64,000 bases of DNA from Candidatus Jordarchaeales archaeon (GTDB taxonomy: Archaea; Asgardarchaeota; Jordiarchaeia; Jordiarchaeales; Freyrarchaeaceae). The first letter of the stretch is position 1, and each line of letters opens with the position of its first letter. Shown piece by piece: positions 37,501 to 50,023 of the stretch. Location of the stretch: the NCBI GenBank assembly GCA_038889235.1, contig JAWAHN010000003.1:193673-257672 (forward strand), written 5' to 3'. A model generated the notes under the pieces. It saw only the letters and a list, made by a program, of their open reading frames with translations, made no database searches and was not told where the DNA came from. The translations under genes were made by a program, and so were the position numbers.

Positions 37501-40500
37501 TCACTTTATGGACGCCAGGTTCCCTATGAGAACCCATGGGAGCTCTTCCGGAGACTTTATGACTTTTAGTATGCTTGCAGCTGAGCACATTTCCTTGAGA
37601 TGTCTGGGTTCTCTGCCCATAGTTATGTAGACGACCCTTATACCCTTGCTCTCCGCTTCCTCTATTGCCACTTTCACGTCTGGTATAGCGTTCTCCTCTT
37701 GCTCGTAGCCTTCTGGTTCCCCGTCCGAGAACACGAACATTATCTTTGTTTTAGCCTCGCGTTTAAGGAGCTCCTCGTAAGAGTACCTTATCGGTGCCCC
37801 CATTCTCGTTAGCCCCCCACTTCTCACGGCTCCAACCCTTTCCTGGATGGTGGCTGTCCACGGCTCATCAAAGTCCTTTGCTATGTATATCCTAGCCTTT
37901 CTGCCCTCCGTGTTGAACGCGTATATCGCGAACTTGTCTCCTAAAGCGTTGCACGCGTCGCCGAAAAGTATCGCTGAGATCTTCAGGCTGTTTATTATCC
38001 TGCTCGTCGACCCACTTGCGTCTATTAAGAGGACTGCGGCGACGTCCCTCGAGTCCCTGTGAATTTTGTCGAATATCCTCTTCTCTCTGCGGTCACAGTG
38101 CGCGTCCACTATGCCGTCCATGTTGAGCTCGCTTCCATCCAGGACGCGCCTCTCCACCTTGAACTTTCTTGGAACTATCTTTTCGAGCTCGTTAATCAAC
38201 TGCTGCCTCACGTAAGAGTACTCGTACAGGGACGGGATCGGGGCGCCCTTCTGGATTCGTATCTCATCCACGTTTATCCAAAGTGAGTACGTCTTAAACT
38301 GCTCATCCCACTCTGGAACCTTCCTCATGCTGTGGGCTTCCTCAGCTTCCTCGATGGTCGTCTTGCACACCCTGGCTGTCAGCTGCTCAGCGTATTTCTC
38401 TTTCAGCTCTTGGAGCTTGTCTGTGCTAAACTCCTCGGATGGGATCACCGACTCCTGGTTCTCAGAAGACTCCATGTCGCTTTCAGCCTGCTCGCTTTCA
38501 GGCGGCTCGGGAATGTAGTCCTTTAGCAGCTCTACGAGTTTGAGAGAGGTTTCAACGGAGTCTAGTACTGTTCCACCCTTAACCCGCTCCGCTTCTTTCA
38601 CCGCCTGCTCAATGAGCTCACTGTACTTTTCCAATTCAATCTTTTCAAGCTCTATGTAGGCTTTCGCCCTTTGAACGGACCACCCTTTCTTCTCGAGCAA
38701 ATCCTGCTTCAGCAACTCTTCTAGGTGTTCGCCTTTAGTCTTGCCGTGAACTATCTTTTCCAGCACTAATTCTAGGAGTGGTGACGGGCTGCTCTGTATG
38801 GTCCTCTTCCTAAGGTTGAAGAGGTTAACCGTCCTGACAAGTGGTTCTAGCTCGCTAAACTCCCTGATCAGGTGGTCTTCGCACCTGGCGTCTTCAAGCG
38901 CCGTGAATATCACCGTGGCAAGCCACGAGTGACCAGTTTTCTTGAATTCCTCGTAAAGCTTTGAGAGTGGGATCGCGAAGCTCCCATACCTTATGTGGCT
39001 TACAGCGTGGAGTGCTCCGTAAAGGTAGAGGAGCATGTTTCTTTCCTTGTCGGGGAACTCGTTTATCACCGATGGTAGGTATATGTGCTTTCCGTCGCTT
39101 CTAGGCCCGTCCTTGCTTGGAACTATTGGTATAGAGCCGCATAGCGGCGTCAACCACGCCATGAGATCGCCTTTCACGTCGTTAAGGTGCAAGCCGCCCT
39201 TGAGCCAGCCCACTGGGTTGGCGAATATAGCGAGAAGCTCACTTTTGTCTAGGTCCGTGATTCTCTTTTCAAGCATCGATATGTAGAGTGACAGTAGGTC
39301 TGGCTCGTCGAACTGCTGCACGGAGGCGAGGAAGGCTTCGCCTAACCCTATCCCTTCAAGCAATTGGAATATTCCAGCAGCCTTCAAAACTTGTTTTACA
39401 CTTTTTATCGGGGCCTGAAGAAGGAAGTCCATGAGGGGCGGTCTCTTCTCTATTATTGACATTACGCTTTTCAGGTGTGTTATCCCTTCTCTCTTGTACT
39501 TGTCAATGAACTTCTTTATGGTCTGGTAGCCCATGCTGCTGAGGTTGCCGAGCCGCCCTATTAGTGAAACTATCTCCTTGCTTGTGACTTCATCTATCTC
39601 CTTGTTTGAAAGGATCTCTTCCAGTCTCTTCCTTACGCTGAAACGCTTATCGTCGCTCAGGACCTTTACTTCATATGTTATGGAGAGTATGTCGCTGCTT
39701 GTAATCTTCTTCAGCTTCGGGTTGGATATTATCTCGAGGATGGTGTTGTAGCCTGTGTCGTTGAGGTACTTGAGCTCCCATATGAGCTCTGCTAGGTCGT
39801 CTGGCTCCACTTGGACTATCTTCGGGTTTAGTATGACGTTTCTTATACGCTCCCTGAAGTCTAGGGGCTTAACGATGCGGTGCCTCCTCAGCCTGCTGGC
39901 TAAGGCGAGCAGGTGTTTCCCCTCTATCTTTGAGAGCACGTTGCTTTCAAGTATCTCTAGCAGTATCTCGTAGCCCTCATCTGTGAGCTCTTCGAACTTG
40001 TCGACGAACTCTAGCAGGTTGTTCTCGTTTCCTATTTCGACCTTGGGGTTACTCAGTATTCTGATGAGGATAGAGTAGTACTTGTCGCCGAGGCGGGAGA
40101 GCTGGCTTATGAGCTTGAGCAGCAACCCACCTTCGAGCGAAGCGACCTTGGAAGCTGAAAGCACCTCTTTAAGCCTGTGCATGACCAAGTTGAAGGTCTC
40201 ATTGCTCATGTCTCTTATCTCCGCTATTATCCAAGCAAGGTTGTTTCCACCTATCTCGGTCACGTGGTTTGACGAGAAAACTTCTAGAAGTCTCTTGTAC
40301 CTGTCCTCCCCCAACAGTTTTAGCCCCCTTATTAGCGAGGGAATGCTGTTCCCCTCGACTTTGTTGACGCTGTCTAGCAATAGCAGTTCGCTCAACCTCT
40401 TCTCCAGGACTTTGATCTCGCTGTCATCGAGCTGCGCGACTTCCGACACTAGGAGGGGGATACAATAACTGCTGATCTGGGTGAACTTACTCCTCGAGAG

Positions 40501-40974
40501 GAGGAACTTCAGGAAATCTTTGTGTTGCTCTGAGAGCTTGCCGCACTCCCTGAAAGTGCTAGGGAGGTCGCGTCCATCTATTGAGCTAACGGCAAGCTCG
40601 CCCAGCATCTGTCTTAGGAAGAACTCCACTGAGACGCTTTTCTCGCCGAGCCTCTCCACCTCGTAGAGCAACCTTATAATGTTTCGTTCACCAACGCTGC
40701 CTACCTTGGGGTTCTCAATTATTCTAGCGATAATGTTTCGTTGAACCCTGGTGAGGTTCTTAAGCTTGTGGGCGAACTCCACAAGCACCTCTAACGAGGT
40801 GAACTTGACTTTCCCGCCTTCAATTATTCTCCTTACATCTTCCACTATTTCCGACCCAAAGGACTGAAGTAAAATATCCAGAGCTCTATCTATGTCAAAT
40901 CCGGAAGAAGTGTTCTCAAACTCTCTTCTCAAGCTCCTAAACCTCTCAAACGTGGCATAAACCTCCTTCAACAC
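37501..40974 (-). CDS. large VWA-domain protein with N-terminal array of ~36-aa helical repeats and acidic linker
   Basis: 1157 aa; C-terminal MIDAS LIDASGSTS...FVFSDGEPEG; repeated LSNPK[VI]...GY..IL modules; acidic stretch PEPPESEQAESDMESSENQE. Confidence 0.6.
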   Translation of the reverse strand: MLKEVYATFERFRSLRREFENTSSGFDIDRALDILLQSFGSEIVEDVRRIIEGGKVKFTSLEVLVEFAHKLKNLTRVQRNIIARIIENPKVGSVGERNIIRLLYEVERLGEKSVSVEFFLRQMLGELAVSSIDGRDLPSTFRECGKLSEQHKDFLKFLLSRSKFTQISSYCIPLLVSEVAQLDDSEIKVLEKRLSELLLLDSVNKVEGNSIPSLIRGLKLLGEDRYKRLLEVFSSNHVTEIGGNNLAWIIAEIRDMSNETFNLVMHRLKEVLSASKVASLEGGLLLKLISQLSRLGDKYYSILIRILSNPKVEIGNENNLLEFVDKFEELTDEGYEILLEILESNVLSKIEGKHLLALASRLRRHRIVKPLDFRERIRNVILNPKIVQVEPDDLAELIWELKYLNDTGYNTILEIISNPKLKKITSSDILSITYEVKVLSDDKRFSVRKRLEEILSNKEIDEVTSKEIVSLIGRLGNLSSMGYQTIKKFIDKYKREGITHLKSVMSIIEKRPPLMDFLLQAPIKSVKQVLKAAGIFQLLEGIGLGEAFLASVQQFDEPDLLSLYISMLEKRITDLDKSELLAIFANPVGWLKGGLHLNDVKGDLMAWLTPLCGSIPIVPSKDGPRSDGKHIYLPSVINEFPDKERNMLLYLYGALHAVSHIRYGSFAIPLSKLYEEFKKTGHSWLATVIFTALEDARCEDHLIREFSELEPLVRTVNLFNLRKRTIQSSPSPLLELVLEKIVHGKTKGEHLEELLKQDLLEKKGWSVQRAKAYIELEKIELEKYSELIEQAVKEAERVKGGTVLDSVETSLKLVELLKDYIPEPPESEQAESDMESSENQESVIPSEEFSTDKLQELKEKYAEQLTARVCKTTIEEAEEAHSMRKVPEWDEQFKTYSLWINVDEIRIQKGAPIPSLYEYSYVRQQLINELEKIVPRKFKVERRVLDGSELNMDGIVDAHCDRREKRIFDKIHRDSRDVAAVLLIDASGSTSRIINSLKISAILFGDACNALGDKFAIYAFNTEGRKARIYIAKDFDEPWTATIQERVGAVRSGGLTRMGAPIRYSYEELLKREAKTKIMFVFSDGEPEGYEQEENAIPDVKVAIEEAESKGIRVVYITMGREPRHLKEMCSAASILKVIKSPEELPWVLIGNLASIK
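39504..40722 (-). repeat. intragenic array of about ten ~36-aa helical repeats (consensus LSNPK[VI]..I....L..LI..L..L.D.GY..IL.I) within the VWA gene
   Basis: Repeats visible in the translation aa ~85-490; coordinates approximate. Confidence 0.45.
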
Positions 40975-41178
40975 TTAAATGTAGTAGAGGGCGTTGCGAG
41001 GAGAAGTAGAACACAGTCGCCGGTAGAGTATTAAAGCCAAGAGAATGGTGGTTCAGGGGTAAGGCTTGTTTCCGGGCGGCCTTCGATGGGCGCCCCACAG
41101 TTCCACGTCCCATAAACCAGAGGAGGGTGCTCGGTATAAATACATTTTGGTAAGAATGCCTCATGTGCCCGCGGCGAC

Positions 41179-42351
41179 TTATATCCCTTCAAGGGTTTCT
41201 AGGGGGATCTTCCTAAGGCCGACGTAGTACGCCACAGCTTCAACTATCTTTCTAACCTCGGTCGCCTGTGAGGGTTTAAGGTTCGCGCTGAGGTTGTCGG
41301 CAACGCGCTCAACGCTCTCGTTCAAGGCGTCTCTTTCACCGAACAACTTGTAGGTTTCAAGGTACGCGTCGATCGCCTTGTGGAGTATTCTCTGCGTTGG
41401 ACACCTTATCTGCCCAGGGGCTAGCTTCTGGTGTAGGAACGAGGAAATGAGGTCTGCAAGCTCCACGTTTTGAAGCTGTATGGTTCCATACTCGTATACT
41501 TGTCTGAGCTTGTCGACGAGGTCGGCTATCTTCCTCATGTTGGAGATGTGCTCCTCGAGCCCAGCTTCCTCCATGAGCTTGTCACTGTACTCCTTAGGCA
41601 CATTCTGAACAGCGACGTACGAAAAGCTCGGCTCTTCGTCAACCTTCTTCTCCTTGAAGTCGCGCCAGCACCCTGAGTCCCACACCATTGGGATAAACTC
41701 TTTCTCACCCAGCCATATTCCACGGTACTGCACTGGGCCGTTCAGTTTCGACGCCTCCATCGCCATCTCCTCAAACTTCTCCTGTTTCACCTTCCTCGTC
41801 TCGACGAGGGAGATCAAAAGTTGAACTTCAACCTCGTGGTACTTGAACTTGAGAGTGTTAAACCTGTCGAGCGCTGGCTCAGGCATCTGCGAGCCTACTC
41901 TCCCGATCTCCGTCGGGTTATAAGATACGATTATCATGTAGTCAGTTCCACCGATTTCCTCGCCGTTTGGAAGCAAGCCACGCCTCCTAGTGTCAAGCCA
42001 GGGGAAAAGCGTTGGCCATATTTCAGCCCTTAAGGCTATAGCCTCGTCGATGTAGAATATTCCCCCCTCTTCTATGACCTTCATATGCCTACTTTTCTCG
42101 AAAACCGTTTCCGAGCCGCCATCCTTACTTCTCAGCTCTCTTCTTCCGAGAATGTCGGCCTCCAGCGTGTCACCACTAGCCATGAGTATGGACAGGGGCT
42201 TGTTAAGTTTCTCTGCTAAGAACTCCACAAACCTGGTCTTACCAGTCCCGGGAAGCCCTTCAAGCGCAAGGTGACCCCTAGCGTAGTAAGTTTGGAGCGC
42301 ACGTATAACCTCGTCCATCTTGCCATCTAAGCTTGAAACGTAAAATACCAT
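41179..42351 (-). CDS. MoxR-family AAA+ ATPase
   Basis: Walker A GLPGTGKT, Walker B FYIDEA, sensor-1/Arg region SYNPTE...ALDRF. Confidence 0.7.
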   Translation of the reverse strand: MVFYVSSLDGKMDEVIRALQTYYARGHLALEGLPGTGKTRFVEFLAEKLNKPLSILMASGDTLEADILGRRELRSKDGGSETVFEKSRHMKVIEEGGIFYIDEAIALRAEIWPTLFPWLDTRRRGLLPNGEEIGGTDYMIIVSYNPTEIGRVGSQMPEPALDRFNTLKFKYHEVEVQLLISLVETRKVKQEKFEEMAMEASKLNGPVQYRGIWLGEKEFIPMVWDSGCWRDFKEKKVDEEPSFSYVAVQNVPKEYSDKLMEEAGLEEHISNMRKIADLVDKLRQVYEYGTIQLQNVELADLISSFLHQKLAPGQIRCPTQRILHKAIDAYLETYKLFGERDALNESVERVADNLSANLKPSQATEVRKIVEAVAYYVGLRKIPLETLEGI

Positions 42352-42529
42352 TCAACCACCTGCCGTGAGCGCCCAGGAGAAGAAACCACAGGCAGCATTC
42401 TTATTCTACCAACCAGCCGGTACTTGAAAGAACATTTATCATCAAACAGTTTTAAATCTTCTTACAAAACCCAAGATAAAAAAGTGTAGACCCCCTTAAA
42501 AAACGTAATGGAAGATAGTTTTTGAAGTT

Positions 42530-43087
42530 TTACGGTGCCGGGAGGGAGCGCTTCAGCACGAACTCACAGTACTCGTCGCCCTTAGCTTTGCACTTAACTT
42601 CCTCCGATGTGAAGAGCGGCTTCCCGTCTTTTTCAGCGAAGTAGTTTAGAATCCCCTCAGCTACGTACCCCGAGCTGCACGTGGCTGATGGTTGCACCCC
42701 CCTCATCTTAAAATATGCCCCCGTTTCCTCTCCGTAAAGCGAGCTGTAAACCCTGAAAACCACTTGTGATTCGCCGAACTCGATAAGCTCGTTTCTCCCA
42801 AACCCCATGAGGTACTCTAAGGATAAGTAGTACTCTAGAACGCCCTTTGCTCCGAGGGCCTCCATCTTCTCAGCAAGTTTCCTACCATAGTTGACTAGCG
42901 CACGCCTCCTCACTGGCTCCAGCATCTTGCTATAGCGCTCTACGAGGGCGCCCATGAGAGAGACGGAGAAGAGCACCCCGGGGGCAAACACAAACCTACG
43001 CCCTTTAAACGACAAAGCCCCACTTTCGTCTATTTCGATGCCGTCAATGAAGCTTTTTATATCCTTAGGCAGCTCCTCAGCCATCAC
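42530..43087 (-). CDS. V4R-domain protein
   Basis: 185 aa ending in KGDEYCEFVLK; 4-nt overlap with the upstream paralogue. Confidence 0.4.
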   Translation of the reverse strand: MMAEELPKDIKSFIDGIEIDESGALSFKGRRFVFAPGVLFSVSLMGALVERYSKMLEPVRRRALVNYGRKLAEKMEALGAKGVLEYYLSLEYLMGFGRNELIEFGESQVVFRVYSSLYGEETGAYFKMRGVQPSATCSSGYVAEGILNYFAEKDGKPLFTSEEVKCKAKGDEYCEFVLKRSLPAP

Positions 43088-43683
43088 TCCTCACCCTCCA
43101 CCACGAACTCACAGTAATCGTCTCCTCTGGCAAGACACTTAGGCTCTTTAAAGGTAAGTTTAATGGACCCGCGGCCCTGCTTCTCTAGGACAGCCTTCAC
43201 AACCCCAACCCAGTTCGCACCCCAGCCGCACTCGTAGAAGGGGAAGCGTGCAGTGAGATCCTTCACGTTCCTCCTAAGCCACTCCGCAATAAGTTGATTG
43301 TACATTCGAACAACCACCTCCGGCTTACTAAAATCCTTTCTCACCACCTCTGAAACCCCCCACCCTCTCACAGCGCTGTACTCCGCATACGCCTCCAAAA
43401 CTTTCTCCGGAGGAATGCCTTGAGACATAAGTTGGTTTGCCACAGTATAGCCCGTAATTTCCAGGGAAGGGTACATTAGCATTTTCATCGAGGAGCCTAA
43501 GACGTCCATTATTCCCTCGAAAGACAACATGAAAAGTTCCTGATCCATGAATACGTAGCGAACGCCACCATACTTTATTCGCCCCTCACTGTCAAACTCT
43601 ATCTTGCTCTTAAGAGATCTCAGAGCATTCCTCAGGGATTCTAAGGAAACCTTTTCACCAACATTTCTCTCCAAACAAACCAC
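43084..43683 (-). CDS. V4R-domain protein, tandem paralogue
   Basis: 199 aa ending in ARGDDYCEFVVEGEE. Confidence 0.4.
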   Translation of the reverse strand: MVCLERNVGEKVSLESLRNALRSLKSKIEFDSEGRIKYGGVRYVFMDQELFMLSFEGIMDVLGSSMKMLMYPSLEITGYTVANQLMSQGIPPEKVLEAYAEYSAVRGWGVSEVVRKDFSKPEVVVRMYNQLIAEWLRRNVKDLTARFPFYECGWGANWVGVVKAVLEKQGRGSIKLTFKEPKCLARGDDYCEFVVEGEE

Positions 43684-43766
43684 CCATTAAAATATTCTCA
43701 CATTTTATTTAAAATACAAGACAGTTTACTTAATATATTTTGTGATCTTCTTTATATCTTGCAGGC

Positions 43767-44432
43767 TTGGTTACGCCATTCTCAAAGTGGTTGCTCCGCG
43801 GTGGGAGCATGTTTCTCGATAGGAGGCATGCTGGCAGGCTGCTGGGGGAGGCGGTTGCCGAAAAGGTTGGAAGAGTAGACTACGTCCTAGCGATACCTAA
43901 TGGTGGAGTTGCGGTGGGCTACGAGGTTGCCAAGAGGCTGGGTGCGAGGCTAGGAGTGGTTGTCGTCAGGAAGATTCCGATCCCGTGGAACACTGAGGCT
44001 GGTTTCGGGGCCGTCGACCCCGACGGGGAGGTCGTGTTGAACGCGCCCTTACTTAGCAGGCTGGGGTTGAGGAGAGAGGAAGTTGAGGAGCTTGTGAAGT
44101 GGGTTAAAAAAGGAATCGATGAGAGGGTGCGCAAGTACGGTGGCATTCCGAACGTTGAAGGGAAGAGTGTTGTGGTCGTGGACGATGGGATAGCGTCGGG
44201 GGTCACAATGATAGCTGCATGTCTCTATGTTAGGAGGAGGAGAGCTGGCAGCGTTGTGGCGGCTGCGCCTGTAGCTCCACTACACTCGTTTGAGCTTGTT
44301 AAGAGCTACGCGGACCAGATAGTGGTTCTCGAGGTCGTCGACACCCTAACCTTCGCTGTGGCGGACTACTATGAGAACTGGTATGATGTTCCAGACGAGG
44401 AGGTTGTCCAGTACTTAGAGGGGGGGTGTTAG
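43767..44432 (+). CDS. predicted phosphoribosyltransferase (COG1926-like)
   Basis: PRPP motif VVVVDDGIASGVTM; N-terminal LAIPNGGVAVG. Confidence 0.55.
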   Translation: MVTPFSKWLLRGGSMFLDRRHAGRLLGEAVAEKVGRVDYVLAIPNGGVAVGYEVAKRLGARLGVVVVRKIPIPWNTEAGFGAVDPDGEVVLNAPLLSRLGLRREEVEELVKWVKKGIDERVRKYGGIPNVEGKSVVVVDDGIASGVTMIAACLYVRRRRAGSVVAAAPVAPLHSFELVKSYADQIVVLEVVDTLTFAVADYYENWYDVPDEEVVQYLEGGC

Positions 44433-44517
44433 GGTTCAATGGGTGTTCGTTTTCGCGCTAAGGGTTATAGCTTAGCTTTAAAAGTTTCGTGAAGGCAGTT
44501 ATGTTTGAGGCGTCTTC

Positions 44518-44900
44518 ATGGTTAAGAAAGGCGAGGTTGAAAGGCTTAAGGAAAGGGCTATGGAAGTGCTGGAAGTCGCCGAGAAGGCTCTGGAAGCTGG
44601 AAAGCACGGTATCGCCGTTTTTTGGCAAATATCTCCTTGCAGCTCTACTTGAAAGCCACACTGTTAGAAAAAGTGGGAAGCTACCCGGGGACGCATAGTC
44701 TCAGAGAGCTTTTAGGGTATTTAGCCGCTCATACTGGCAAGGACGAGTTAAAGGAGTTTGTGAGAGTTAACAGAGCGAGGCTGTCAGCAGTCGAAGGCGT
44801 ATACATGACTTCAGGGTATGGTTCAAAGGTTTTCTACGCCGAGGACGCCGTTAAGCTTGTCGAAGAAGCGATAGAGGTTGTTGATGCATGTTTGAAGTAG
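44518..44900 (+). pseudogene. HEPN-domain toxin gene disrupted by a frameshift in a T6 run
   Basis: ATG at 44518 encodes MVKKGEVERLKERAMEVLEVAEKALEAGKHGIAVF, then stops. The adjacent frame continues as LANISLQLYLKATLLEKVGSYPGTHSL.... Together they align with the intact paralogue (SAFHIEQSLQLYLKYILAKELGYFPRTNKL). Frames switch at the T run 44618..44623. Confidence 0.6.
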
Positions 44901-45230
44901 CCCGAAGAAGAGCCCAGATGGTTAAAGAGTGGAGGAAGTGGGCTGAGGGAATATGCAGAACTGTGAAGGAAATACTCCCCGAGGCTGAGGCTTACGTTAT
45001 AGGTAGCGTCGCTAGAGGAGACGCTGTGGCCGCAAGCGATGTCGACCTTCTTATTGTTCTACTAGAAGTGCCTGAAAGAGCGCCTGGAAAGAGCCGAGAT
45101 AGTGGTCGAGATAGAAGACAGATTCGGCCTCCCATGGGATGGACATCCATTCGAGTTCCATCTAGCCACAAAGGAGAAGGCAAAAGTCTGGCTTGAAAGA
45201 AGCAGGAAAAGCATAAAACTGACAGCGTAA
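44888..45230 (+). pseudogene. minimal nucleotidyltransferase (MNT) antitoxin gene disrupted by a 13-nt tandem duplication
   Basis: N-terminal part has GSVARGDAVAASDVDLLIV. C-terminal motif DGHPFEFHLATKEKAKVW sits in another frame. Deleting the 13-nt unit 45082..45094 restores one ORF that aligns with the paralogue 45923..46279. Confidence 0.6.
45070..45094 (+). repeat. imperfect tandem duplication (12 + 13 nt: gcctgaaagagc / gcctggaaagagc) that frameshifts the MNT gene
   Basis: Seen directly in the sequence; removing the second unit restores the reading frame. Confidence 0.5.
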
Positions 45231-45922
45231 GAGGAGGAAACGCGTTAACATGGAAACTTGAATACATCAGCATGCTTCAAAACCCGTTCTATGCAAGTTG
45301 AATAAACAATGACGTGAAAACTCCTTTAAATAAAAGTCATTACGCTGAGCTGGAAATTCCTCTCTACACTTACGCATCCCTTGCACGCTAATTGATGAAG
45401 TGACGCACCCTCCTCCCGGAGTTGGCGGAGCTTGCTCTTTAAATGGTAGCGTTAGCGTCTTCTGGCTGGATATTTGTAGTCGACGAACTCACAGTGAACG
45501 GTTGAGGCAAAAACTGTTGTGGCGCCAGTGACGGGGTCGCCATCTACGTCCCTTTAAGCTTGCAATTAACTTTTGACGCACCATAGGTGGCGCTTACAGC
45601 TACTGGGAGACAACATTCTCTCCAAGACCCTTCAGAAAATCGTTTGGTGCGAGGAGTACGCTAAAGCTGAAGCCAAAGCCGGATAAGACCCGGTAGAGAA
45701 TCCATGAAATAAAGGAGAACACAATGTAAACCATTCCGGGAAACCTTCCTAACCATGCTCAACCTCAAATCCCACCAATAAAACTTCCTTATTTGTAAAA
45801 ATTTTAGTTGTGTTAATGGTGGAACTATCGCTGCCACCAGCAGGGCGCTTAAATTAAATTGTGTTGTTCCAGACGTTGACCCTTGATGATGTTAGTGGTT
45901 TTGTGTCGCTTTAGTTTTTCAT

Positions 45923-46279
45923 TTAGTTAGGTGGGTTTTGCTGGTCTACTGGGAGATATTTTTTGATGAATTTTTTGTAGTGCTCCCATTGTTCTGGTTT
46001 TAGCATGTGGATTTCGAAGACGTCTCCTATACTTTTTCTCACCTCAACCTTGAACCTTAGATCTTTTTCTTTTTCAAGGTTTTCTGTTACGACCGCTATG
46101 TCTATGTCTGAAAGGGTTGGGTGGTAGTTTCCTTCGACAGCTGACCCAAAAACGTATACTTCCGCCTGGCCGAAAAATTTGAGGGCGGCTTCCTTTATTT
46201 TTCTGGCATACTCTAAATAGTTCTCGAAGTACTTTCTTTTCTCTTCTTTTTCTTTTACAAGGTATTTTACGATATCCAT
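45923..46279 (-). CDS. minimal nucleotidyltransferase (MNT), HEPN-MNT module
   Basis: FGSAVEGNYHPTLSDIDIAVV and FEIHMLKPEQWEHY motifs; 13-nt overlap with the upstream HEPN gene. Confidence 0.7.
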   Translation of the reverse strand: MDIVKYLVKEKEEKRKYFENYLEYARKIKEAALKFFGQAEVYVFGSAVEGNYHPTLSDIDIAVVTENLEKEKDLRFKVEVRKSIGDVFEIHMLKPEQWEHYKKFIKKYLPVDQQNPPN

Positions 46280-46647
46280 TCTCTGAACTTCTCCTTGAAC
46301 TTTTTCAGAGTGTTAAGCATTGCTTCGACTTCTCTTTTCGAGTAGTCTCTTGGAAAGTATCTAGAGAGGATGTATGCGTCTTCTATATCTCTAAGAATTA
46401 TCTCGTTGTCTTCGAAGAATGCTTGAAAGTCGTTGTTTAAATTTGCCAGCTCTGAGAATAGCTTGGAGAGCTTATTTGTCCTCGGGAAGTACCCAAGTTC
46501 CTTCGCTAAAATGTACTTCAAGTAGAGTTGAAGGGACTGCTCAATATGAAAGGCGGACAGGTCGTACACGCCCTTATTGAAGAGCTCCACTGCTTCCTCT
46601 TCGAACTTCCTTGCCCTCTCGAGGAAAACCAAGATCTCTTCTCTCAT
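46267..46647 (-). CDS. HEPN-domain protein, HEPN-MNT module
   Basis: AFHIEQSLQLYLKYILAKELGYFPRTNKLSKL HEPN pattern; start placed at the second Met (MREEIL) because the longer ORF N-terminus looks like read-through. Confidence 0.65.
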   Translation of the reverse strand: MREEILVFLERARKFEEEAVELFNKGVYDLSAFHIEQSLQLYLKYILAKELGYFPRTNKLSKLFSELANLNNDFQAFFEDNEIILRDIEDAYILSRYFPRDYSKREVEAMLNTLKKFKEKFREWIS

Positions 46648-47676
46648 GAAGAAGAATTCCCTCCAAAAAAGGTAAGAAGCCCAGAATATCCCATGAAAGT
46701 AGGGATTTTTCATTTATACTCGTTTTGTAGTACGAGGTACTGGGAAACAGGTGGTAGACGGACCGCGATGCGCAACCCACCTTTAGCCGAGATCTCAGGA
46801 CCCACCTCGCAGGGAAGGCAGTTGGGAGGAATGAGGCAGCTTAATGACAGACGGCAAGTTATACGCATCACTCTGTACTAGTAAGGGGCCGTTAGCAGAA
46901 ATTTATTTTTTGTCAAATGTTTAGCTTGCAAGGTTGTTCGTTGCACTCTTAACGCATACCCCCACGCTTAAGCGTCTTGAATGATCACAGGTTGCCCTTC
47001 TCACAGAGGACATTCATTAACGTACCGTCGAAACAACTTATGTCTAGACCCCTCCACACCCCCTTTAACTCAGTTTCTCGACACTTGCTGAGGCACCCTT
47101 TGGGCTTTAAGTTTCATCTCTTTGCCTGCTATTCTTATTGGTGGTTTTTCTTTTTTCGGGTTGTCCTTTGAAGATTATTATGTCGCTTATTGTTGGTAGT
47201 TTTCTGGCTATTGTGTCTAGTGTGTTTAGTATGGTGTCTGCGGCCTTCTTCGGCATCTTGCCGAGCAGCTTCCCCCAATGTGGAAAGCTCCAGAAGAGGG
47301 ATAACAAGTCGTAGTGGCCTGCTTTTCAAAGAAGTTCGTTTTTGCCAGCTACTGTTCAGTCCTTATAAATGTGGCGGCGACACATGTAGCGACGTCTTCG
47401 CCCTCGTTTCCATAAGTTTTCGCCCACGTGACCCCGGAGAGTTTTTCTGTCTTTGAACTACTAGTTGTGGAGGCGTAATTATTATTGCTGTACCACTACC
47501 ATGGGTAGCATAAACGCTAGCACAACCGTTACGGTAGAAACCGTCGCCGAGTATTCTTCTATGTTTAACCTTAAGGTTTCATCCCTTATTGAATTATTGT
47601 GCTACTGGACGGTTGTGCAGTGGTCGTTGCATTTTGACGCAAGTTTTATTTTTAACCATGGCTGGGAGTAAGTGGT

Positions 47677-48354
47677 GTGGTGGTTGTAATGAGTGAGGCT
47701 GTGGAGAAACGCTGGCTTCTTATTTGCGGTGGCAGCATAGTTGCTTCGGCGCTCACCGGACTTCTGACGCTAGTCCTCGCAGTGGCCCTCTACACTTCTT
47801 CTCCCATAATGCCTGTATATCCGAAGTTCCTCCCTGTGGGTCTGACTTTTCCATGCATCAACGTCGGCTATAGTCCAACCTGGCAGTACATCAGCGAACT
47901 TGGAATGGGGCCTACAGCGCCCATATTCAACACCGGGATGATCGCCGCGGGCTTGCTGGCTTTGCCAGCGTTCGTCGTCGCCCGTAAGGTGATAGGAAGC
48001 TCGCTCACGGCCACCCTAGGAATCCTGTTCGGGCTAGTGGGGTCCCTTTGCCTTGTCGGGGTTGGGGTTTTCCCCATGTCTCCAGCGTTCTTCATCGAGA
48101 ACCCGCACCCACTCGTGTCCATAGGTTTCTTTTCAGGGATGTGCCTGTCCGCGGCTTTCATAGGCTACGCGATGACGAAGAACCCCATGTTCTCGAAGAT
48201 TCACGGCTGGCTTGGAATGGTCGTTCTAGCCGTGGGCGTGATTCTAGGCTTTACGGGTGACCCATTGCCAGAATGGGCTGCAGCAGTAGCAATAATAACG
48301 TGGTTCTCAACGCTGGGGTTCTGGCTTCTAGTTAAGGCACCAGGAAAAACTTAG
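47677..48354 (+). CDS. integral membrane protein (DUF998-like?)
   Basis: 225 aa with about 6 predicted TM helices. Confidence 0.4.
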   Translation: MVVVMSEAVEKRWLLICGGSIVASALTGLLTLVLAVALYTSSPIMPVYPKFLPVGLTFPCINVGYSPTWQYISELGMGPTAPIFNTGMIAAGLLALPAFVVARKVIGSSLTATLGILFGLVGSLCLVGVGVFPMSPAFFIENPHPLVSIGFFSGMCLSAAFIGYAMTKNPMFSKIHGWLGMVVLAVGVILGFTGDPLPEWAAAVAIITWFSTLGFWLLVKAPGKT

Positions 48355-48394
48355 AGTCCGCACTTCCCTTTTTCTTTTAAAGAGAGGGGGTCTT

Positions 48395-49363
48395 ATGGGC
48401 GAAGTGGAGCGCTTCGCGGCACTCGTACGCGTGTGTGTTGAGGACGCTGTGGAGCGCAATGCGGCTAAGGGAGTTTTACTGTCTGGCGGACTTGACACGT
48501 CCATACTTGTTGCACTGGTTTCGAGGACACGTAAGTTGACTGCTTTCACAGTAGCCCTTGAGGGGGCGCCCTCCCCCGACGTCCACTATGCCAGACTGGT
48601 GGCGGAGAAGTTCGGCGTCAGACACGTTGTACGCTTCTTCAGTTTCGAAGAGGCTTTGAAAGCTGCCTACGAAGTGGTGCGTGTGCTCGGAGTCTTCGAC
48701 CCCATGGAGGTGCGCAACAGCATACCGATCTATATTGCTCTGATAGAGGCGTCAAAACACGTTGAATGCGTAATGACGGGCGACGGGGCGGACGAGCTGT
48801 TCGCAGGCTACAGCTTCCTTTTCGAGCTAGGCGAAGAGGAGCTTGAGCGTAAGCTTAGGTCCATGTGGAGTGTAATGAGCTTCTCGTCGAAGCCCTTGGG
48901 AGCCTGTCTCGGCGTCGGCGTCTCACTACCATACCTAGACCCGGTAGTCGTAGACTGCGCCTCAAAGGTTCCGGCAAGGCTCAAGGTTAGACAAGACGGG
49001 GAAACCGTCTGGGGAAAGTGGATTCTAAGGAAAGCCTTCGAAGACGTCTTGCCACACGAGGTAGCTTGGAGAACCAAGACACCCATAGAAGTGGGCTGTG
49101 GAACGTGCACCTTGCCAAAAATACTCGGAGAAAAGGTTGGGGACGAAGAGTTCAGCGAAAAAAGGAAGTATTACCTCGAAAAAGACGGCGTGGAGCTTCG
49201 CGACAAGGAACACTTGACATACTACGAGGTATACAGGGATATATTCGGCCCCCCAAGGGAAGCGGTGAAATCGCCGGAGGGGAAAACATGCCCGCACTGC
49301 AAAGCGTCAATCCCAGTAAACGCTACCTATTGCAAGATTTGCGGCGGCTACCCCATCCCCTAG
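48395..49363 (+). CDS. PP-loop ATP pyrophosphatase, asparagine synthase-like domain protein with C-terminal Zn-ribbon
   Basis: SGGLDTS PP-loop; C-terminal CPHCKASIPVNATYCKICG; no N-terminal glutaminase domain. Confidence 0.5.
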   Translation: MGEVERFAALVRVCVEDAVERNAAKGVLLSGGLDTSILVALVSRTRKLTAFTVALEGAPSPDVHYARLVAEKFGVRHVVRFFSFEEALKAAYEVVRVLGVFDPMEVRNSIPIYIALIEASKHVECVMTGDGADELFAGYSFLFELGEEELERKLRSMWSVMSFSSKPLGACLGVGVSLPYLDPVVVDCASKVPARLKVRQDGETVWGKWILRKAFEDVLPHEVAWRTKTPIEVGCGTCTLPKILGEKVGDEEFSEKRKYYLEKDGVELRDKEHLTYYEVYRDIFGPPREAVKSPEGKTCPHCKASIPVNATYCKICGGYPIP

Positions 49364-49603
49364 AAGGAAAGGCCTCGAGAACAAAGATTTACGCCTGCCT
49401 CTGGAGCCACTACTTTCTCCGAATCTTCCTTTTCCTTCCCCCTTGACTCCATGCGACTGTTATGGTTTGAGATTGCTTGGCACAAACCGAGGAAGCTTTA
49501 CTCACTATACTATTGTAAAGCGATAAGTCTCTCATTGCTCCTAAGTAAAATTTTTAAGTTTGATGAAAGAAAGAATTTGAAAGCCTAGGAGGGGGCTAAG
49601 AGG

Positions 49604-50023
49604 ATGGCTTCTAAAAAACTGCTAGATATGCTTAACGAAGCCATAGCAAGGGAAATCCAGGTCTCAATCCAGTACATGTGGCAGCACGTCCAGTGGAGCG
49701 GGGTTAAAGGGTTCGCTGTTAAAGATGAGCTGAAGAAGATAGCCATAACCGAAATGAAGCATGCTGAAGCGATCGCGGAGAGGCTAGTCTACCTGGGGGG
49801 AACACCAACAACGAAGCCCACAGAAATATTTGTCGGAAAAACACTTAAAGAGATGCTGCAACGCGACGTAAAAGACGAGGAGAACGCGATTAACCTGTAC
49901 AAAGAAATAATAGCGCAGGCGCGTGCAGAAAAAGATGAAACAACAGCGGTCCTATTCGAAGGAATACTGAAGGATGAAGAAGAACACCATGACACGTTCA
50001 CCACTCTGCTGGAAGACCTATGA
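49604..50023 (+). CDS. ferritin-like/bacterioferritin family protein
   Basis: 139 aa four-helix pattern with EMKHAE and EEEHH diiron-ligand-like motifs. Confidence 0.5.
   Translation: MASKKLLDMLNEAIAREIQVSIQYMWQHVQWSGVKGFAVKDELKKIAITEMKHAEAIAERLVYLGGTPTTKPTEIFVGKTLKEMLQRDVKDEENAINLYKEIIAQARAEKDETTAVLFEGILKDEEEHHDTFTTLLEDL

Follow-up and report, generated by a model that had tools for sequence, protein, structure and literature searches.

Whether two small adjacent genes that no longer read through are truly decaying, by which lesions they were broken, and how they relate to an intact pair of the same kind about 1 kb away are the questions raised by a locus between positions 44,518 and 45,230 of a 64,000-nucleotide stretch of DNA from a Candidatus Jordarchaeales archaeon, referred to in the following as the window. 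An earlier note on this DNA, made from the sequence alone, had described the locus as a HEPN-MNT toxin-antitoxin module with frameshifts in both genes, and the HEPN-MNT identity and the two broken frames are borne out by the domain matches obtained once the frames are repaired. The features on which our analysis relies are listed in Table 1.

Table 1. Features of the HEPN-MNT site and its surroundings, in window coordinates.
Feature	Position	Strand	Basis
Phosphoribosyltransferase (PRTase), intact; synteny anchor	43809..44432	+	
A/T-rich TATA-like box GCTTTAAAAGTTTCG, ~35 nt upstream of the HEPN ATG	44475..44489	+	sequence only
Class II HEPN pseudogene (PF05168); frame 0 to the T-run, then frame 2	44518..44900	+	
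Lesion 1: T6, ancestral T7 (GTT TTT TTG = Val-Phe-Leu), 1-nt deletion	44618..44623	+	alignment
Substitutions in the HEPN motif E-D-x-Y-x-x-x-R-Y: D94G, A95V, I97M, R100G	44796..44816	+	
Site of 9-nt in-frame deletion: one GAGGACGCN tandem unit lost, AEDAEDA to AEDA	44832..44852	+	alignment
Minimal nucleotidyltransferase (MNT) pseudogene (PF01909)	44888..45230	+	frames, domain match, alignment
Polymorphic GG/GGG	44931..44932	+	
Imperfect tandem repeat (12-mer/13-mer), ancestral coding sequence (PERA-LERA)	45070..45094	+	alignment
Lesion 2: CC, single C in orthologues; +1 insertion, the actual MNT frameshift	45083..45084	+	
Remnant of 529-aa secreted repeat protein gene, C-terminal part (aa 427-468)	45408..45534	-	
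Intact MNT of second pair; 118 aa; overlaps its own HEPN by 13 nt	45923..46279	-	
Intact HEPN of second, foreign Class II pair; 126 aa from MREEIL	46267..46647	-	
Remnant of the same 529-aa gene, N-terminal part (aa 1-84); start codon lost; at least 7 indels	47306..47559	-	

Two sets of public loci frame the comparison. The first comprises the lineage of the window itself: a protein look-up with the PRTase found it, residue for residue the same, on nine public contigs. These belong to six MAG assemblies at NCBI and to two sequencing runs that were assembled separately, and over 3.4 kb they match the window at 99.7-100% identity. Most of the assemblies apparently stem from a single sampling project or a few related ones, so that they may represent one clonal population. 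A 44-aa product that is specific to the broken HEPN frame was found on these very nine contigs. In public records, this lineage and its nearest relatives go under the names Candidatus Jordarchaeales or Jordarchaeum (Asgard archaea); a single NCBI record of P0005, an 83-aa product called from window positions 44649-44900 in sister assemblies, says 'Thermosphaera sp.', whereas Jordarchaeales is the name in the lineage's other records, and a mis-binned contig or a mislabelled MAG is the likely reason.

The second set comprises relatives with an intact pair. A homologue search with the repaired HEPN led to intact proteins of 130 aa with 73-84% sequence identity, encoded within a conserved gene order that runs from VWA, AAA_5, V4R and an unnamed gene through the PRTase to HEPN (130 aa) and MNT (113 aa; 103 aa as called on some contigs), followed by a minus-strand gene of 529-538 aa, DUF998, asparagine synthase and ferritin. 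As this order is common to the window and the contigs of its relatives, we consider these loci orthologous; they represent three lineages, with DNA identities to the window of ~85-88% (L006, L007) and 75-76% (L008-L017). The V4R/AAA_5/VWA block is kept in all related Jordarchaeales loci and includes, on the minus strand of the window (42530-43683), a V4R-domain gene and, adjacent to it, a second gene to which no family is assigned. Both are downstream of an ATPase of the AAA_5 (MoxR-like) type and of a ~1150-aa protein that matches VWA weakly.

HEPN homology sets in with the ATG at 44518, in frame 0, and past the TTTTTT (44618-44623) it follows frame 2 up to the stop codon at 44898-44900. The two pieces match the family profile with E-values of 3e-7 and 3e-30, far beyond chance, and the frame switch that the earlier note had placed inside this T-run thus stands. 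Adding one T yields a 127-aa HEPN that matches Pfam PF05168 (1.3e-20; 74.1 bits, cutoff 22) and shares 84% identity with P0001, an intact orthologue. The intact state is indeed T7, as had been proposed: the run is T7 in 12/12 orthologous loci, where the codons read GTT TTT TTR (V-F-L), and T6 in the window as well as in each of the 12 loci that the nine lineage contigs yielded. Further damage lies downstream of the run. Four of the 13 amino-acid changes in the HEPN fall within its E-D-A-Y-x-x-x-R-Y motif, in which E93, D94 and R100 are nearly invariant, and both tyrosines invariant, across a 26-member family alignment; D94 has become glycine (GGC, 44796-98), and so has R100 (GGG, 44814-16), with the arginine codon of the S-R-Y part being GGG in each lineage contig that reaches the site and AGG in 12/12 orthologous loci. 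Likewise, one of two tandem GAGGACGCN units is missing in each lineage contig reaching the site, and both are present in 12/12 orthologous loci.

Upstream of the gene, the TATA-like box GCTTTAAAAGTTTCG is kept in the orthologues and the pseudogenes may therefore still be transcribed; with both start codons also intact, transcription and the translation of N-terminal fragments of 44 and ~65 aa appear possible, as judged from these signals. A general scan for promoters and terminators stayed at chance level, its models being of the bacterial type and not applicable to archaea. A small hairpin (ACGG-TAT-C-GCCGT, 44606-44623) lies directly before the T-run with a terminator-like score; such sites number three in the region, with 4.4 expected, which is chance level.

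The MNT begins with an ATG at 44888 that overlaps the HEPN stop by 13 nt, and its homology follows frame 1 from there to ~45083 and frame 2 from ~45066 to the stop at 45228-45230; the two pieces match the orthologue with E-values of 4e-34 and 6e-27, again far beyond chance. The break had been ascribed to a 13-nt imperfect tandem duplication, and the window does carry a 12-mer, GCCTGAAAGAGC, at 45070-81 followed by a 13-mer, GCCTGGAAAGAGC, at 45082-94. However, intact orthologues hold both repeat units, as CCTGAAAGAGCG-CTGGAAAGGGCC (PERALERA), and are there a single C apart from the window, which rules out the duplication as the lesion. At the break itself, the lineage reads GAGCGCCTGG and the orthologues GAGCGCTGG or GAGCACTGG, with one C fewer: the C-run has a length of two in each lineage contig reaching the site and of one in 12/12 orthologous loci. 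The right repair is therefore to shorten the CC at 45083-45084 by one C; the protein then has 113 aa, as in the orthologues, whereas deletion of 13 nt gives one of 109 aa that lacks LERA. The repaired MNT matches PF01909 with 39.0 bits (cutoff 21) and the GSX10DXD motif is still encoded in the pseudogene, with GSVARGDAVAASDVD as an exact fit.

A third frameshift, also in the MNT, is still polymorphic in the population. The ancestral GG at 44931-44932, found in 12/12 orthologous loci, is retained in the window and in L103, a contig from one of the sequencing runs, and is GGG in six other lineage contigs. A frameshifted MNT product of 102 aa was not on record in an exact look-up because the gene callers used an internal start. 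All three frameshifts are thus single-base indels in or beside short one-base runs, and since the main MNT lesion is a gained C, the argument that two different types of lesion speak for real decay fails.

The decay is nonetheless real, and the conclusion rests on the nine contigs, the intact syntenic orthologues, the loss of the motif arginine and an excess of non-synonymous changes. The opposite reading would be that the genes are intact, with T7 and a single C, and that the frameshifts are homopolymer errors of sequencing or assembly. Both lesions do lie in or beside one-base runs, and the evidence consists of assembled contigs; yet the nine contigs, drawn from six NCBI MAG assemblies and two runs assembled separately, agree in these states, a systematic error shared by them at both the T6 run and the CC is very unlikely in Illumina-type assemblies, and orthologous loci from the same kinds of project keep T7. 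Moreover, no homopolymer error would produce a 9-nt deletion or the substitutions of motif residues. In length, the flanking genes equal or nearly equal their orthologues; they are free of frameshifts, and the indels are therefore restricted to this locus. We regard an artefact as extremely improbable, and, as the lesions occur in each independent assembly of the lineage, take them to be real and fixed, the third frameshift excepted.

Selection on the two genes points the same way. When L008 and L012 serve as outgroups, 24 non-synonymous and 15 synonymous changes over both genes fall on the branch of the window, versus 3 and 14 on the branch of its sister L006 (Fisher p = 0.0034), a signal that comes mostly from the MNT, as the same test for the HEPN only is not significant (p = 0.14). 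This excess of amino-acid-changing substitutions indicates relaxed selection. Altogether, we are highly confident that the resident HEPN-MNT is a genuine pair of pseudogenes at a conserved chromosomal site, beside a laterally acquired pair.

A frameshift in a T-run may also be tolerated if it is bypassed, and the earlier note had offered the run as a possible slippage site. Here, U6 would be a site of -1 ribosomal or transcriptional slippage from which some full-length HEPN is still made, or T6 and T7 would alternate as a contingency switch. If tRNA-Phe slipped by -1 on U UUU, TTG would be read next and exactly the ancestral V-F-L restored, and all intact orthologues keep T7. Recoding is also on record for this group, as Jordarchaeia have been reported to recode stop codons (PMC9723677), but what is reported there is stop-codon recoding and not frameshifting, and the lesions at this locus are frameshifts and not in-frame stops. 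The part of the HEPN that such recoding would rescue lacks the near-invariant arginine, the aspartate and three further residues; the MNT partner has its break at a CC, which is not slippery, and in most strains a further one at GGG; and the non-synonymous excess speaks against purifying selection. No stable structure is predicted in the 97 nt downstream of the T-run (z = -0.15; 88/200 shuffles fold as well), so that the site, with T6 only on the nine contigs, no stimulatory structure and a degraded downstream frame, does not have the make-up of a programmed frameshift or contingency locus. As for strain variants, which the earlier note had recommended comparing, T6 is found on all nine contigs and CC on all that reach the site, and the +1 T variant that would have pointed to phase variation is absent, there being no T7 allele in any lineage assembly. 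Slippage or switching is, in our judgement, highly unlikely, and we keep to decay.

As judged from their domains and motifs, both pairs are Class II HEPN/MNT modules (PF05168 + PF01909). The first prediction of HEPN/MNT modules came from Makarova et al. 2009 (PMC2701414), and Class II is defined by a PF05168 HEPN without RX4HXY and a PF01909 MNT with GSX10DXD (Yao et al. 2020, PMC7641770). The window pairs share with that class two small, adjacent and overlapping genes, which are carried by thermophilic archaea and bacteria (PMC7641770), HEPNs that match PF05168 with 74-86 bits and MNTs that match PF01909 with 39-46 bits, and a HEPN that lacks RX4HXY and keeps a conserved Arg-Tyr, with the aspartate and the arginine lost in the pseudogene of the window; in the intact orthologues and the second pair, E-D-A-Y-x-x-x-R-Y is present. 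They also resemble Class II in that several pairs cluster together (also PMC3710099). What sets the copy at 44518-45230 apart from a typical member is that it is a pair of pseudogenes and that its host is an Asgard archaeon (Jordarchaeales). An extreme of clustering is found in L105:1-3587 (GCA_964478605.1), a relative of the intact HEPN, where five HEPN-MNT pairs stand in tandem; two of its five MNT genes are only 72 aa long, versus ~110, and shortened MNT partners may be common in HEPN-MNT arrays.

A further comparison is with the type VII HepT/MntA system (Class I), which likewise combines a HEPN-fold protein with a minimal nucleotidyltransferase bearing GSX10DXD. In contrast to it, the HEPNs of the window match PF05168 only, and not DUF86, PF01934 or PF08780, none of the three HEPN sequences has an RNase motif of the form RX4-6H or RX4HXY, and the MNTs score 21.4 and 30.8 bits against the NCBIfam MntA_antitoxin model (NF047752), well below its cutoff of 60. 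The order also differs, with HEPN upstream of MNT and a short overlap in both window pairs and all relatives examined, where the usual gene order is MNT first (PMC3710099). By analogy with characterised modules, the MNT would likely nucleotidylylate the HEPN on its conserved tyrosine; the toxin-antitoxin label is, for both pairs, a prediction by the same analogy, there being no biochemical study of any Class II module (PMC7641770). Among proteins of solved structure, the best sequence matches of the MNT are AF0614 (PDB 1YLQ; E = 8e-6) and HI0073 (PDB 1NO5; E = 0.0095), two structural-genomics proteins without demonstrated function that share with it features including the C-terminal PFEFH motif, at a distant level of similarity. 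A PDB search with a single HEPN sequence gave nothing useful, and one with the HEPN family profile returned 4NQF and, weakly, TM0613. PADLOC reported no match for the HEPNs and only generic nucleotidyltransferase matches for the MNTs (PDC-S09, cyclase models).

The second pair is the only intact HEPN-MNT in the window, and searches with family profiles and orthologues revealed no copies beyond the two pairs in these 64 kb. Its members match PF05168 with 85.8 bits (cutoff 22) and PF01909 with 46.4 bits (cutoff 21), and its MNT carries GSX11DXD, one residue longer than GSX10DXD. The earlier note had rightly pointed to it as an intact pair 1 kb away (45923..46647, minus strand), and had taken it for a paralogue and the broken pair for a decaying duplicate. 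That part does not hold. The HEPNs share only 31% sequence identity and the MNTs 35% over 52 aa; the GC content is 41% in the second pair, 49% in the broken pair and 51% in the window; and the nearest relatives of the second HEPN outside the lineage, at 54-67% identity, are, where named, from Archaeoglobaceae, Archaeoglobus and Ferroglobus. Identity, GC content and nearest relatives together rule out that the intact pair arose by a recent duplication. By these sequence measures, the intact neighbour, though also of Class II, is an unrelated pair that was laterally acquired from an apparently Archaeoglobaceae-like donor, and it is the broken pair that is the ancestral resident.

The place of insertion can be located by comparison with the relatives. 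All related lineages have an intact secreted repeat protein of 529-538 aa, which matches DUF5122 faintly and is destroyed in the window, where ~1 kb from the middle of its gene is replaced by ~1.8 kb (45315-47305) that holds the foreign HEPN-MNT, which thus stands between the two remnants of the gene. A search for terminal direct or inverted repeats around the foreign pair returned short, chance-level matches only and no mark of a mobile element, Rfam (E <= 1, over 40000-50000) found no structured RNA in the non-coding intervals 45231-45922 or 46714-47305, and the window has no tRNA according to ARAGORN. In its right flank, which adjoins the gene remnant, the inserted segment carries on the minus strand a 66-aa open reading frame (47107-47307) that is called as a gene in sister assemblies and has no assigned family.

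These observations outline the history of the site. The resident arrangement is PRTase, HEPN-MNT, 529-aa surface protein, DUF998 and asparagine synthase. In the lineage of the window, a foreign, low-GC Class II pair with Archaeoglobaceae-like relatives has come to stand within the 529-aa gene, destroying it. The resident HEPN has lost one T from T7, 9 nt in frame and its near-invariant arginine and aspartate, and the MNT has gained a C (C to CC) and, in most members of the population, a G (GG to GGG), with the frameshifts presumably arising through replication slippage. The arrival of the foreign pair probably predates the resident frameshifts, because the density of indels is much higher in the 529-aa remnant (at least 7 in ~254 bp) than in the resident pair (3-4 in 713 bp). 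Were the HEPN harmful, it must have been disabled no later than the MNT; its four fixed lesions are compatible with this, with the order of events not set by the data. As they stand, the pseudogenes would have no remaining function.

This order of events invites the idea that the foreign pair caused the decay, by making the resident dispensable, be it that its MNT neutralises the resident HEPN, that it fills the same role or that it acts in 'anti-addiction'. The sole lineage with the foreign pair is also the sole lineage with a decayed resident, its closest relative (L006/L007) has both the resident pair and the 529-aa gene intact and no foreign pair, and the indel density in the remnant suggests that the insertion is the older event. 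This correlation, however, stems from a single evolutionary event (n = 1), and cross-reaction is not expected between pairs that are only 31-35% identical. The module is dispensable anyway, as the more distant Ca. Jordarchaeum sp. LHC_1308 (L018; PRTase 79% identical) has neither the foreign pair nor a resident HEPN-MNT between PRTase and 529-aa gene, and co-residence does not generally cause loss, given relatives with up to five pairs side by side. Such functional displacement we therefore consider unlikely, if less so than slippage or an artefact. In L018, only ~300 bp (2387-2691) separate PRTase and 529-aa gene; a stretch of 20 nt there resembles the MNT's 3' end, a marginal match (score 30, shuffle maximum 28) that hints at an old deletion.

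What happened to the resident pair is ordinary gene decay, involving no new mechanism, in a module that is known and very common in archaea. For the annotation, it follows that the four small open reading frames at 44518-45230 are to be replaced by two pseudogenes, with the lesions T7 to T6 and C to CC; beyond annotation, the importance of the locus is small. The site nevertheless displays HEPN-MNT modules that are absent, intact, decaying and replaced, and thereby offers a well-sampled case of module turnover in Asgard archaea. If displacement were true, it would provide a before-and-after series, from L018 without a pair, through L006, L008 and L012 with the resident, to the window with an intact foreign and a decaying resident pair, by which it could be tested, in an Asgard archaeon, whether Class II modules are addictive toxin-antitoxin systems. 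The locus could in this way serve as a small test case for any addictive behaviour of Class II HEPN/MNT pairs.
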